Shown here piece by piece: positions 3,001 to 9,000 of a stretch of 18,497 nucleotides of DNA. Position numbers: made by a program. Source of the DNA: a virus; the UHGV virus genome UHGV-0380155; one strand, given 5' to 3'. Numbering within the stretch: position 1 is the stretch's first letter; every line of letters begins with the position of its first letter.

Positions 3001-6000
3001 CCTGCCCTCCTCCTTAGCCTTTTCCTTCAATTTTTCTTTAATCTCTGGCGGGATACGAATCCCTAATGGAGCGATGTCTCTAACTTTCATTTCCACCTCA
3101 CTTGCTACACCGTGATAACTAAATACTACACCGTGTTTATTTAAAGTCAAAAATTTTTTGCCTACACTGTGTAGCTACGCACAGCGTGCAGGAGGAGAAA
3201 TGAAAGGTGCAAGAGATATCAGTCCATTGGGGATTAGGATTCCAGACTATTTAAAGAAACGCATTCAGCAAGAAGCGGATAAAAACGGCAGATCAATGAA
3301 CTCAGAGATCGTGCTTATCCTTCAAAAACATGTTGATAATCTTGATGGCTCTCGCTCACTTGAAGGATTCGCTAACCAAGAAGCTGATAAATTCAAAGAG
3401 GCGCTACTTGAGACGCTAAAGACCATGTATGCTAAGGATGAAAAATAATGCTGCACACAATTCATTTCTTATGCCCCGTTAACACTGCCACTGTTGGGCA
3501 ACTTCAGAACCACTGTCTCACCGCATTATCTCAAGGCGCAACTGAATTAAATATCCATATATCAAGTCAGGGAGGGGAAACTGCCGCTGGCTTTACTGCG
3601 TATAACTTTCTTAAGTCACTCCCTGTTACCGTTAGAACTCACAACATAAGCAATGTTGAATCCATAGCTAATATCGTTTTCCTGGCTGGCTCAGAACGTT
3701 TCGCAAACCCATTATCAAGATTCCTGTTACATCCTCTATTATGGTGCTTTGCCTCCCCAGCCGCCGACCATGCCAGATTGAGAGAGTACGGGAAATGCCT
3801 CGATAACGATCTTGATCGCTTCGTTGAGACGTTCAATATCGACATCGGAACCCATATTAGGTGGGCATCCCTGATAGCAGACTCGACCATTTTGGATGCT
3901 AACAAGGCTCTTGAGCATGGCATAATTAATTCCATAAAAACTGCAAGGCTGGCATCCAATCAGGCAAACTGGTGGGTTGTTTGATGGGTAAATCATGATT
4001 ACTCCTTATAAAAAACCCACCTGACGGTGGGCATAATCCATTACTGCGAAAGTTTATTAATGGAAAGGAAACCGCCAAAATTGCCGACATTCCTGCGCAG
4101 TTCACACCCGCGCATGCACTTGCTGCATCTGTCCTTACGGATATCCGTGGTGGGGTTGTCGAACTCATCCGCCACAGCCCCGCCCGTGTAACCACACTCA
4201 TCAGAGCGGTAGGTCCACATACAGGTGTTCGCCAGCATGATGCGACCAGGAAACAGCGCCCCGTCCGTCTCGGTCGGTGTCGCCAGCACAAACGAGGCCG
4301 TCATGGCCGTCAGCTCTGACATCTGCTCCACCACCCAGCGGTCGCTCAGCTCCTGCTCCGGGTCTGCCTTCGGATTGCCCGCAACGAAATTCACCGCATC
4401 CAGAAAACGCCCATACACCCGACGGCGGACCACCGTGGCCCCCACCAGACTCTGCAGGTCTTCCGCCATCCCGGTGACCAGACCGAACAGATTGGACACC
4501 GTCAGCAACGGTCTGGCACTGCTGCCCTTCCCGCTCATCTGAAAACCGCTGCCGTCAATCGGGTATGCCTGATATTGCCGCCCCTGCCAGGTGACCGGCT
4601 CCCCTTTTTCATTCAGCTCATTACAGAAAAAATACCGCTCACCGCCCTGCACCGTCAGGTCAATTTCCCAGAGCACCACCCGCGGTGACTGCTCTGATTT
4701 AACCGACTCGTTCAGACTTTCTTCGTGGATCTCCTGCATAAACTTCCACCCATAAAAAAGGGGCGCAATGCGCCCCGAACAAAAAAGTTCAATTAAAAAT
4801 CGAAAGCAATGAAGGTAATAAAATGAAAATTAAATCGGCTAATTGCCGTTTGCAGTGACCGGTGAAAACTATACTTTCACCGATACAGACCATCTGTGAG
4901 GGCAGATGGTCTGTATTTGTTCACTCACCAGTTATCATCAGAACTGATAAGTCATACCAACGGCAACGATATTATCCGTTGCAACACCTGCATCCTGGGT
5001 AAACTGACTTTCATCAATCAGATTGATTTTATAATCAACATAGGTGGACATATTTTTATTAAAATAATATGTTGTACCCACATCAATATATTTAACCAGA
5101 TCCTGATTGCCATAGTTTTTACCACCGACAATTATATCCTGAGCACGAGACTGCAGGAACGCCAGAGATGGACGCAAACCGAAATCAAACTGATACTGTA
5201 ATACCGCTTCAAAGTTCTGGGCTTTATCTGCCACCCCTTTGTCGCCAAAGGTCGTCATATTCTGAGTCTCAGAATATATTGTCGCCAGATAAATGTTGTT
5301 GGCATCATATTTAAGCCCGGTGCCCCACATCTCAGCGTGTTTACCTTTTGCAACACTGCCGGAATCAACAACTGTTTGAGTACCGTTTACTGTTTGCGTA
5401 CCATTCAGGCCTTTCACCTGATTGTTGGTACGGTCTGCGTTAGTATATGCAGCCACGATACCAAAACCTTCATATTCATAACTGGCAGAGAAACCATAAC
5501 CATCACCATTAGCTTCCTGAAGGTCATCACGTTCATTCTTGCCCTGATACTGAGCTGCAAAATTCAGGCCATCAACAAGTCCAAAGAAATCAGTATTACG
5601 GTAAGTCGCCACACCAGAAGTACGGGCAGTCATGAAGTTATCGGTCTGGGTCCAGCCATCACCACCAAACTCTGGTAATACGTCGGTATAAGCACCAACA
5701 TCATACGCAATACCATAGTTACGACCATAATCAATGCTGCCAAAGTCACCGAACTTCAGACCTGCAAACGCCAGACGAGTCTTATTACCCGCAGCACCGT
5801 CTGATTCAGTTTTATTACCAGAGAACTGATATTCCCACTGACCAAAACCGGTCAGTTGATCATTAATCTGAGTTTCACCTTTAAAGCCCAGACGTGCATA
5901 TGTCCGATCACCATCATTTCCCTTATCGCTGGAGAAATAATGCAGTGCCGTTACACGTCCATACAGATCAAGCTTATTGCTATCTTTGTTATATACTTCC

Positions 6001-9000
6001 GCAGCCTGCGCACCAGCTGCAAAAATCACAGCCGCAGCCACGGCTGAAAGTGCCACTGTCATTTTTTTCATCATTTGTTCCTTATTTTAATTGAACTATT
6101 CATGAATTGGGCTGTCATGAACGCCAGTTAAAATATTTTACTACAAATTCTGAATTCAATTCATTAAATGCAACAAAATGTAAACAAGAGACAAGTTTCA
6201 CACTTTCTGTTAAGACGACAAAAAATAATTTTGCATGAAACAATAAAGATTAATTTATAATACAATTCTTGGAAATCTATGAGATTACCTGCTCAATCGT
6301 GCAACTGAAATCACTGTACCGGGCATTATCCGTGACACTCCACTCACGGCACACAACCCTCACCGTTCGGTTATGTTTCGGCGGTCGCCACAAAAAGGCA
6401 CGGTAACCACCATGCCACGATAAAAACTCTTCCAGCCATCGCCGGGTCGCCTCATCCGTCACCCGGAACACCGCCTGAAACGTCTTCAGTCGGGCATTAA
6501 GTCCCGTCGGGCGGCGCTGTTCATAACCGTCACCAAACCGTACCCTCGCCACCGACGGTTTCTCACTCACCTGCATCCCTTCACGCGGGACCAGATGCAG
6601 CGTTTTTATCTCAGCCACTCAGCATTCCTCCGTCACGTCGCATGGACAGCATCACCGCCTGCACCCGCTGGTCAATCAGTTGCACAAGGCTGCCCGCAGC
6701 TTCCGGCCCTATCTGGCCATTAGTCCCGTCATTCTGAATGGCGATATGGTAGACCGGGGAATACACCAGACCTGCACTGCCGTTCATACTGCCCACCGCG
6801 CGTACGCCCAGCGAGCCATCCGCCGCCCGGGTCAGGGGCATAATGGCTTCAGGACCGGCCTCCCCCATCAGTCCCGCCCCTTTTGCAAAGGCAAAGTACG
6901 TGGGCGTATCCACAATACTGTTGCTGTACGCACTCAGGTTTGCCGAGGTATACACGCCGCCTTTTGCATTGGCCACCGCACCGCCCAGCCAGCTACCAAT
7001 ACTGCCGATAAATCCTCCCGCTCCGGACATACTGTTTGCCGCCGTCCTGATCCCGTTGACAATCGCGGCATTCATAAGAACTTTTGATATTTCCTGCAGC
7101 ACTGATGAGGCCCAGCTGCGCCATTCCACTTTATTTCCGTTCAGCATCTCCGTGATGTTATTCACCATCCCTGAGATACCCTCCGTCGCAAGCTGTGCTG
7201 CCTGTGAGGCGTAATCGGACGCATTATCCACCCAGTTACTGAACCCCTCCTGCAGCCCTTTCTGCCAGTCCGCACGCTGCGCATCCGATTCGGCATAAAA
7301 AGTCTCCTGGTCTTTAAGACGTTCACTCAGATACTGCGCGTTCTGTGCCAGAGCCTGTCTGTAAAAATCCTCACTGATATCCCCGGTCTGATACTGAGAC
7401 TGAAGGTCCGCATCCTTCTGGCGGAAACTGTCGCGGATCTGCTGCAACTCCCGCATGCGTTCACGGAGCCGCTCTCCCTGCCCGTACCCCAGCAGTTCCG
7501 CTTCATTTGATGCACGCGCAGCCACATTATCATTCTTCAGGGTCTCTTCCCGGGACCGCAACTGCTCCCGGATTTTTTGCTGGTCAATCAGGGCCGCATT
7601 GCGCAGCAGTTCCTGCTTCTGCATCTCCGTCAGGGTTTTCAGTTCGCCCTGCGCAGTCTGGTATTTCAGCTTCGCCAGCTCTGTATTCTGCCCCGCAAGT
7701 GCCAGTTGCTCTTTCTGCTGCTTCAGCAGCCGGGAAAAACTGTCTTCCGCTTTTTCCGTCTCTGATTTTCCACCCCGGGATTTGGGTTTATTCGCCTCGT
7801 TATTGCGCCAGGCTTCCAGGGCATTACTGATATAACGTTGTCTCGCCTCCTGATACGGATCACCCACAAAACCGAGGTCATCCGCCGCATACCCCAGTCG
7901 GACACGCTCTTTTTCTTCCCCTTTCAGTCTGGACAGGGCCAGCTCACGCTCTGTTTTTGTCAGGGCACTCTGCTGTTTATCATCCAGAGTGGCCTGTGGC
8001 AGCCGTAACGGCACATTCACCAGTCCCTGCCGCTGCTGAAGCAGTTCATTACCCAGCCCCAGCAGACGGTTGAATTCCGTATGCTGACCGTTCATAACCA
8101 GCATGGACTGGTACACCTTATTCTGCTCTGCCGCCTGCTGACGAATTAACGCCACACGACGGTCTTCCAGCCCGGCAAGCACATCCTGAATGGACTGCGC
8201 TTTTTCCTGCATCTGTGCCAGACGGGACTGCTCAACGGCAAGCTGCTCTGTTGCCTGAGCAAGCCCTTCCGTTACGGTCTTCACCGAGGTCAGATGGTTT
8301 ATCATGAATCCGTCACCGGTCGTCCAGCCCGGGTTCGCCAGAACATACTGATATCCTGCGATTTTTTCCTGCAGGGATTTCACCCGACTGGCCTGTTCAT
8401 CAATCAGCCGGTTCTGCTCTGTCAGCGCCGCCCGTGTTCGTCCTTCATTATCTGAGGCTTCAGGCAAAGACATTGACGGCGTTTTATGCGCGATTTCATC
8501 TATCGTCAGTGCATACTGGCGCGCAGACTCCCTGGCCTGCTCCTGATTCTGGTACAGCGTGTACCATGCTGCAGCCCCCAGCATCACCAGTCCGGGTACG
8601 CCACCAACCAGCCCCAGCGCACCGCTCATCAGACGTGAGCCCACCGCCGTTGTACTGTTCAGCGCATTCTGGGCGGCGCTTCTGGCAGCAATATTTCTGT
8701 TCAGGCGTTCCTGTGTGGCCGCCAGACGGGCCTCTGCAGCAATCTGCATCTCCGTCCCGCGGGCTGCCGCCACGGCCTGCTGAGCACGGTACACGGCTGC
8801 CCTTGCCCGCGCCGTGGCAATCTGCGTTCCCCTGAACTGTGCTTCCGCCAGTGCAACTTCATTACGTGCAGCCGTCACAAGTCCTGCCGTGGCAGACATC
8901 GCTCCGGAGGCCATATTGCCAAAGTACCGGGCCACCCCGACGGCAACCAGCGCACCCACAGCTGTTGCCACATTATCAATCTGTCCGGCAACACCGTTCA

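Follow-up and report, generated by a model that had tools for sequence, protein, structure and literature searches.

The window examined in this study is an 18,497-nucleotide (nt) stretch of the virus genome UHGV-0380155, and its source is a lambdoid prophage of Escherichia coli. Between the tail genes M and L of this prophage lies a cassette composed of a general porin gene and a long structured 3' untranslated region (3'UTR). The cassette occupies the gap from the M stop codon to the L start codon, which is exactly 4740-6276, the same interval that had been flagged in an earlier inspection of this DNA (the sequence-only reading). We propose that the cassette combines a porin with an RNA directed against the porins of the host. 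It would then work as a "porin swap" analogous to Lc/IpeX, a prediction to which we assign a probability of about 0.55. The parts of this proposal are graded separately. The cassette is very probably a functional porin moron, and we have good confidence that its 3'UTR is a functional RNA. This conserved structured RNA, which public annotation leaves blank, probably carries half of the cassette function.

The porin open reading frame (ORF; 4938-6074, minus strand) encodes 378 amino acids (aa), or 377 aa from the second ATG (6071), which RefSeq takes as the start. It matches the Pfam family Porin_1 (PF00267) over the whole profile (1-337 of 337) with an E value of 2.8e-142. When the translation was aligned with OmpC, OmpF and OmpN of K-12 and with Lc, the signature of the general porins was found, namely AE(V/I)YNKD, the PEFGGD motif of the constriction loop and a C-terminal Phe (...TYQF). 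The signal peptide comprises residues 1-24. The ORF had been described as complete on the grounds of its signal peptide, mature N-terminus and terminal Phe, and all three were read from the translation. The matches in the PDB were OmpK37 (the best), OmpC, PhoE and OmpF, with E values of 1e-116 to 1e-130. An AlphaFold2 model built from 17 close relatives was unusable (mean predicted local distance difference test score 29.5), and the fold of a trimer of 16-stranded beta-barrels is deduced from the sequence only. Judged by these features, the product is a complete general porin of the OmpC/OmpF/PhoE/Lc family.

The closest named relative is Lc of phage PA-2 (73.8% identity). The known phage porins Lc, NmpC and "OmpD" are roughly 70% identical to the cassette porin, and the kinship with them that had been suspected was borne out. 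The identities to OmpC, OmpN and OmpF of K-12 are 63-64%. The RefSeq name "porin OmpC" rests on NCBIfam NF007841, a subfamily model and not an equivalog, which is narrowly passed with 504.8 bits against a cutoff of 484; the equivalog models of PhoE and OmpF are failed. Assignment as an OmpC orthologue was considered and rejected because of the prophage location at the M/L junction, an identity of only 63.5% to K-12 OmpC and the greater closeness to Lc. The leader of the true ompC was found in 5,371 of the 5,426 complete E. coli genomes, at a median of one and a maximum of two places. The 377-aa protein has no exact-sequence match in the cluster collection.

Downstream of the porin, the sequence-only reading had seen nothing except an all-GC terminator. 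The terminator was found as described (GGGGCGC-ATT-GCGCCCC followed by T6; 4776-4754, minus strand), with a 7-bp stem of 7/7 G-C pairs, a 3-nt loop and a stem that is unchanged across 11 alleles. The restriction to a terminator did not hold, because a conserved structured RNA precedes it. The 3'UTR is about 185 nt long (4754-4937), with about 160 nt between the porin stop codon and the terminator, and is composed of three hairpins, an unpaired stretch and the terminator. The structure was derived with RNAalifold and pair counts from 11 distinct allele sequences, and the controls were the same pairs with the partners slid by 1-3 columns. The three hairpins and the terminator comprise 38 pairs with 98.8% of cells paired and eight pairs changed on both sides, against 37-46% paired and 0-3 double-changed pairs in the slid controls. 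All three hairpins are on the minus strand. Hairpin 1 (4916-4883) has 14 bp, of which three are changed on both sides, and 98.7% of its cells are paired. Hairpin 2 (4882-4860) has 10 bp with four such pairs, and hairpin 3 (4851-4833) has 7 bp with one; the alleles that we call group B carry an insertion of 11-14 nt that lengthens hairpin 3. The window 3'UTR folds with -63.6 kcal/mol, compared with -36.7 ± 3.7 kcal/mol for shuffled sequences (z = -7.3).

From hairpin 3 to the terminator about 57 nt are predicted to be unpaired, and the first 36 of them form the putative seed (GAUUUAAUUUUCAUUUUAUUACCUUCAUUGCUUUCG; 4836-4801, minus strand). The minus-strand segment UUAUUACCUU within 4754-4937 is the presumed pairing partner of the ompC leader. 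Between deep alleles, the identity is 0.82-0.88 in the unpaired 36 nt and 0.86-0.90 in the terminator, against 0.46-0.73 in the rest of the 3'UTR. The identity of the unpaired stretch is about twice that of fourfold-degenerate sites (0.39-0.48). At the level of sequence comparison, structure and selective constraint of the 3'UTR are thereby demonstrated. A small plus-strand ORF opposite the unpaired stretch (MKIKSANCRLQ) was also considered and rejected, since its length is variable and group-B alleles have lost the start codon.

The reverse complement of the unpaired stretch resembles a porin translation-initiation region. RNAduplex was run with the 36-nt stretch of five alleles against the region from -60 to +40 of K-12 genes, with 1000 dinucleotide shuffles as the reference. 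The predicted duplexes with ompC had energies of -21.5 to -28.5 kcal/mol (z = -4.4 to -5.1; 0-2 of 1000 shuffles) and those with ompF -20.5 to -24.0 kcal/mol (z = -2.0 to -4.3). The values for the window allele are -23.8 kcal/mol with ompC (z = -4.7; 0/1000) and -21.6 kcal/mol with ompF (z = -2.7). Neither ompA nor the cassette's own initiation region gave a significant duplex in the five alleles. The same method applied to genuine pairs as controls yielded -26.5 kcal/mol (z = -4.1) for MicC with ompC and -27.4 kcal/mol (z = -4.2) for MicF with ompF. The window-allele duplex with ompC spans the Shine-Dalgarno sequence to codon 4 and pairs UUUAAUUUUCAU with AUGAAAGUUAAA and UUAUUACCUUC with GAGGGUUAAUAA. 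The duplex predicted for group-B alleles has 15 contiguous pairs over AUAACAGAGGGUUAA and eight more over the MicC site. In a ranking with a small background of 2,888 windows, drawn from about 75 kb of K-12 DNA, the ompC initiation region came first and second for the group-B stretch, and ompF second for the allele SCU-106. Of the 5,426 genomes, 5,365 carry the ompC target with an identity of 99% or more, so that it is essentially fixed in the species.

The proposed RNA has to be compared with the known antisense regulators of host porins. MicF is similar in sequence. The stretch is identical to nt 10-40 of MicF at 27 of 32 positions, a value attained in at most 2 of 1000 shuffles, and the common UUUAUUACC(G/U)UCAUU covers the ompF Shine-Dalgarno sequence, where the ompF duplex of the cassette stretch is also predicted. 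As in MicF, the 5' region is complementary, by prediction, to the Shine-Dalgarno and start region of ompF. The spacing from the stretch to the terminator is similar as well, which leads to a full-length alignment with the MicF model. On the other hand, MicF is a free-standing gene divergent from ompC, whereas the cassette element is the 3'UTR of a porin mRNA and is predicted to pair with ompC better than MicF does. The likeness to MicC is confined largely to group B, whose alleles read GUUAU-UACCUUUAUUG where MicC has GUUAUAUGCCUUUAUUG and pair at the same site of the ompC leader, extended over the Shine-Dalgarno sequence. The window allele is only weakly similar to MicC, which in addition is a separate gene divergent from ompN.

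IpeX is comparable in its place on the transcript. It is the 3'UTR of the Lc/NmpC porin transcript and has been reported to repress OmpC and OmpF (PMC12197685, PMC7177473). Lc of PA-2 and NmpC of DLP12 are phage-borne general porins of the same family, and their genes too have a long structured 3'UTR with a U-rich stretch antisense to the ompC leader, placed between the porin stop codon and a GC-rich intrinsic terminator. The cassette RNA has this IpeX-type position. The IpeX stretch before the terminator, AAATAAAGG(GTAA)TATATAACAGAAGGTTTATA, is antisense to AAATAAAGGCATATAACAGAGGGTTAATA of the ompC leader (0/1000 shuffles), and the predicted duplex has an energy of -26.7 kcal/mol (z = -5.4). 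In the PA-2 locus this stretch was located at approximately 2692-2727, downstream of lc, with the same in DLP12, and it covers -31 to -2 of the ompC 5' untranslated region (5'UTR). According to MAFFT, the 3'UTRs of PA-2 and DLP12 do not align with the cassette 3'UTR as a whole. Group-B alleles and IpeX nevertheless have a motif of about 25 nt in common, ..CUUCUGUUAU..UACC(C)UUUAUU (4 to 40 of 1000 shuffles). Therefore, an anti-ompC core is retained in two phage porin 3'UTRs that otherwise do not align, and no other comparative evidence argues as strongly for a function of this core. There are also differences. The genes lc and nmpC are found in the interval from Q to the lysis genes and are transcribed against the direction of the late genes, whereas the cassette lies at M/L on the late strand, so that both its position and its orientation are new. 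A further difference is an additional distal segment of the cassette RNA with complementarity to the cassette's own 5'UTR.

Several observations weigh against an RNA that acts on host porins. The 3'UTR might be conserved for functions exerted in cis alone, namely mRNA stability, termination or the translation of L. The Rfam scan returned no family at the gathering score and no MicC match; the best sub-threshold match was MicF (RF00033), full-length over 4751-4837, with 26.6 bits and E = 0.35 against a gathering score of 79, and it is a lead rather than membership. The group-B allele had no Mic-family match in Rfam. Comparison of the window allele with IpeX was not significant (561/1000 shuffles). 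IpeX itself has been reported not to act through complementarity alone (PMC12197685), and the introduction of PMC10690425 describes it as being without complementarity to ompC. The predicted duplexes carry bulges and G.U pairs, RNAduplex scores them without target accessibility, and the best register on ompC is not the same for the two allele groups. The apparent complementarity is inflated because initiation regions are AU-rich and internally repetitive. Finally, ompC comes third in the ranking of the window allele, and a site within the coding sequence of phoE scores better. This best background duplex (-27.9 kcal/mol) was observed at ..GAAAGATATTGAAGGTATCGGTGATGAAGATC.. in K-12 phoE (locus L006, 1652-1751, minus strand), and a similar site occurs in ompF at +903; the phoE pairing may be a chance match or a second target class.

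Several of these points would fit a moron that is a porin gene and nothing more. In that case the 3'UTR would act in cis, by stabilising the mRNA 3' end and insulating L from lysogenic transcription, and the likeness to MicF and ompC would be a relic of a captured chromosomal porin locus or an AU-rich by-product. The strong structure fits such a cis role by itself, and so do the sub-threshold MicF match, the off-target sites that score as well as ompC in the window allele and the different pairing registers. The unpaired stretch speaks against it, being the best-conserved part of the 3'UTR apart from the terminator and yet predicted to be single-stranded, which a stability element does not need. 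Moreover, five diverged alleles scored as high in complementarity to ompC as genuine MicC did in the same test, and the non-homologous IpeX 3'UTR has the same anti-ompC motif and is reported to repress OmpC in trans (PMC12197685). We consider a purely cis-acting 3'UTR to be rather unlikely.

A different role could be suggested by the extremities of the transcript. The 5'UTR element AGUUCAAUUAAAA (6097-6085, minus strand) is complementary to the distal 3'UTR segment UUUUUAAUUGAACU (4799-4786, minus strand), and it is the best-conserved block upstream of the porin. The resulting inverted repeat of 13-14 nt flanks the porin ORF in all alleles, with z values of -1.8 to -3.4 in six alleles, one compensatory change from A-U to U-A and further G.U-compatible changes. 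The cassette might thus regulate itself, with the 3'UTR segment pairing to its own 5'UTR and setting porin translation or mRNA half-life, either through feedback by a processed fragment or through 5'-3' closure, and host porins would not be the target. The statistics are modest, however, and the allele STEC1585 has an uncompensated mismatch in this pairing. Self-regulation also leaves the better-conserved stretch 4801-4836 unexplained, which has no significant pairing with the cassette's own initiation region. As the main function of the RNA it is quite improbable. The self-regulatory and anti-host-porin roles are compatible and may coexist.

The 5'UTR element belongs to an upstream non-coding region (6075-6276, minus strand) of 202 bp with 25.7% GC, in agreement with the roughly 200 bp of AT-rich non-coding DNA that had been noted, and this region presumably holds the promoter and the 5'UTR. 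The promoter was the sole element of the sequence-only reading that was not found at its claimed coordinates. The AT-rich DNA is there; a scan of the porin strand for the sigma-70 consensus revealed no promoter in it. Upstream of the ORF, deep alleles have an identity of 0.57-0.79, compared with 0.39-0.48 at fourfold-degenerate sites, and four blocks are conserved (6208-6199, 6178-6169, 6138-6129 and 6099-6090). The second of them lies in an OmpR-box-like sequence, TTTACATTTTGTTGCATTTA (6184-6165, minus strand). In the allele STEC1585, the equivalent 23 nt match the upstream region of K-12 ompC at 21 positions, approximately -107 to -84 from the transcription start (0/300 shuffles), a stretch which is presumably the OmpR C1 site. 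The window allele did not match the ompC upstream region significantly (34/300 shuffles). Local alignment with the upstream regions of lc, ompF and ompN disclosed no homology, and the OmpR-box-like match to ompC is the sole exception. We infer that OmpR may bind at 6165-6184. A candidate -10 hexamer, TAAAAT (6140-6135, minus strand), falls in the conserved block AAATATTTTA and has a poor -35 element, a combination that could fit an activator-dependent promoter. A promoter of the cassette is thus suggested by the allele-conserved blocks, including the OmpR-box-like sequence.

The porin alleles are 84-100% identical in protein. Fourfold-degenerate sites are only 0.39-0.48 identical between the two main allele groups and thus nearly saturated; the protein identity despite this indicates old lineages under strong purifying selection. 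Among further loci in which the whole gene is readable, the porin is intact in 34 of 37. A pseudogene in homologues had been named as an outcome that would contradict the moron reading, and disrupted copies turned out to be rare. In strain 2015C-3121 (locus L009, complete genome) one extra A in an A-run at about 7080 splits the ORF, and this homopolymer frameshift could be a sequencing error. In two metagenome loci (L063 and L070) the porin is truncated.

These disrupted copies, together with the loss of most of the terminase and lysis-region genes from the window prophage, would be expected if the porin were a silent relic, unexpressed and decaying in a defective prophage. The high proportion of intact copies and the strong purifying selection are against this. 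Intact copies also persist in prophage remnants that are ridden with insertion sequences (IS) and in which L has decayed. Furthermore, an LF82 prophage has an NmpC-type porin whose transcription in the lysogen exceeds the local background about 10-fold (PMC9928086). A silent relic is accordingly highly improbable. Among the remnants, loci L064 and L076/L077 were observed to hold the porin and the 3'UTR intact beside IS66 elements and a gene for a Tle1-like effector of the type VI secretion system, with L as a pseudogene; at locus L076 an IS66 end stands in place of the terminator.

The history of the cassette can be read from its empty site. In related phages the genes M and L are translationally coupled, and their stop and start codons share the sequence TGATG without intervening DNA. 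This is also the case in phage phi330, where the junction reads ...GGTGAACTGATGCAG... and the M stop/L start overlap ..GGTGAACTGATGCAGGAC... A comparison with 50,697 phage records gave 189 with matches to the M and L flanks only and none with a match to the middle; neither the cassette porin nor the 3'UTR was found in any of them. The sequence-only reading regarded the porin as a moron, a view that a porin between M and L in all relatives would have spoken against. Most relatives are without the porin and have overlapping M and L. By the Hendrix/Juhala definition, a moron is extra DNA between genes that are adjacent in relatives, with GC contrast, its own promoter and terminator, and expression from the repressed prophage. 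The extra DNA, the GC contrast and the terminator were observed here, along with an intact ORF and the kinship with Lc, and the promoter is a putative one. As had been described, an AT-rich island (GC 0.407) stands between GC-rich M (0.561) and L (0.582), and its upstream part is at 0.257. Comparison with phi330 indicated that the insertion altered the last two codons and the stop of M, from ..QVVN-stop at the empty site to ..QVIS-stop in the window. The left edge of the island is directly after ..GAGCAGGT, where the M C-terminus changes from VN-stop to IS-stop, and the right edge runs from ..CCCCTTTTTTATG into GGTGGAAGTTTATG. A Shine-Dalgarno-like GGTGGA of L (4750-4745, minus strand) is retained at the boundary, and the terminator ends 15 nt before the L ATG.

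The island boundaries are identical in all alleles examined. The 198-bp downstream region occurs in 111 of the 5,426 complete E. coli genomes, at no more than two places per genome, and the cassette was further found in 32 IMG/VR contigs, 12 metagenome contigs and, as a related copy, in an assembly of Citrobacter farmeri (one short contig). When 185,579 GTDB species representatives were scanned twice for the cassette, the first scan yielded 0 matches and the second 12 chance terminators in unrelated taxa. Every copy with readable context is M-porin-L or a decayed remnant of it. The cassette is found in tail modules with differing M and tape-measure types. The best explanation is that the cassette is a lysogenic-conversion moron derived from one ancient insertion at the M/L junction of lambdoid tail modules, which was spread by recombination through the flanking tail genes.

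Two side observations concern this spread. At locus L075, an L 5' fragment of about 95 nt followed by a 3' fragment of about 45 nt from another M type lies upstream of the island (approximately 2650-2800). Such fragments are expected if the cassette moves by recombination in flanking tail genes, and they look like the scar of a recombination that carried it into a different tail module. In IMG taxon 643348545 the cassette is on three separate prophage contigs (loci L029, L044 and L048), so that a single strain can hold several copies.

The classical lambdoid morons, which Juhala and co-workers are said to have described in 2000, reportedly comprise lom and bor of lambda and gp15 of HK97. The cassette is like them in being an extra gene between conserved neighbours in the late-gene region, with GC contrast and its own terminator. 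It differs in its cargo, a porin and a putative regulatory RNA. In the literature that could be searched, no description was found of a prophage porin at a tail junction or of the M/L junction as a moron site. Phage porins and IpeX are known; the M/L site on the late strand and a porin lineage with a length-variable loop are new. The RNA is outside the IpeX and MicF families by the tests run, yet has a Mic-like stretch, and the complementarity between the 5'UTR and the 3'UTR is also new.

The variable loop, an exception to the otherwise strong conservation of the protein, is located between beta-strands 9 and 10. An 18-nt duplication (5370-5405, minus strand) encodes NGTQTV twice, with three synonymous differences between the copies, so the small surface-loop duplication that had been pointed out is present. 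A Tandem Repeats Finder scan scored nothing at this duplication. The near-identical sister allele P0001 (371 aa) has a single NGTQTV copy, and among alleles the segment varies from no insert to about 20 residues. It was assigned to loop 5, in the loop numbering of OmpF, by alignment with OmpF and OmpC. A second segment, further downstream, has an 8-residue insert in some alleles.

The porin swap that we propose would proceed as follows. In the lysogen, the cassette would be transcribed from its own OmpR-responsive promoter, and transcription would stop at the terminator (4754), so that L would stay silent. The cassette porin would be exported to the outer membrane. The 3'UTR would exert its effect as part of the mRNA. 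Alternatively, the transcript would be cut where the unpaired stretch begins, at an AU-rich sequence, and an RNA the size of MicF (about 85-95 nt) would be set free. In either form it would base-pair around the Shine-Dalgarno sequence and start codon of the host ompC gene, with a weaker interaction at ompF, and would block translation of both. The ribosome-binding site of the cassette porin is without the target sequence and would escape. The net effect would be the replacement of the major host porins, which are common receptors of phages and colicins, by a loop-diversified phage porin. During lytic growth, RNA polymerase modified by Q, as in the biology of lambda, would read through the terminator into L. 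An extended version holds that one transcript silences ompC and ompF and supplies a repression-proof, loop-diversified porin, wired to OmpR and tuned by the 5'/3'UTR pairing, as an arms-race receptor swap distinct from Lc/IpeX. We hold this version tentatively, at somewhat less than an even chance.

The surroundings of the cassette are those of a damaged prophage. The late genes of the window are all on the minus strand in the order tape-measure (6611-9853), M (6277-6618; Pfam Phage_min_tail, E = 9.7e-29), L (4041-4739; Pfam Phage_tail_L, E = 1e-90), K and I. The 2.7 kb around the island are 100% identical to E. coli strain cM8a, whose prophage adjoins btsS. Compared with the cM8a prophage (locus L001), about 6.5 kb are missing between terL and the lysozyme gene, including the terminase small subunit, an HNH gene and Bro/KilA genes, and in a 289-aa ORF (17474-18343, minus strand) a phage lysozyme domain at the N-terminus is fused to the nuclease domain with which the terminase large subunit ends. 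Because of this loss in the terminase region, the window prophage cannot package DNA, and any benefit of the cassette goes to the host or is a legacy.

A second cargo island (1944-4040, GC 0.437) lies between L and K. It contains an Arc-like repressor (3158-3448, plus strand), a ClpP-like protease (3448-3984, plus strand; weak ClpP and head-maturation-protease matches) and a KilA-N/P22-AR antirepressor (2187-2888, minus strand). The porin-carrying prophages L009 and L010 are without this island, which shows that the two islands are independent. The cM8a prophage carries sodC between I and J and a T-even Gp38-like receptor-recognising protein at the side tail fibre (15821-16348 and 9296-9808 of L001); unlike in cM8a, I of the window runs straight into a J-like reading frame. 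The C-terminus of J matches long-tailed Stx1/Stx2 phages such as BP-4795, a match from which no receptor of the prophage can be deduced.

Many antibiotics enter the cell mainly through OmpC and OmpF, which also serve many phages and colicins as receptors. The cassette is present in about 2% of complete E. coli genomes, and many of these are Shiga toxin-producing and commensal strains. If the proposed porin swap is true, the porin complement, phage susceptibility and permeability of the carriers may differ from what is predicted from the core genome. The cassette would then add a second example, independent in sequence, of an anti-host-porin RNA within the mRNA of a phage porin. It would also suggest a simple base-pairing mechanism for IpeX and could help to settle its mode of action, which has been called unclear in reviews.

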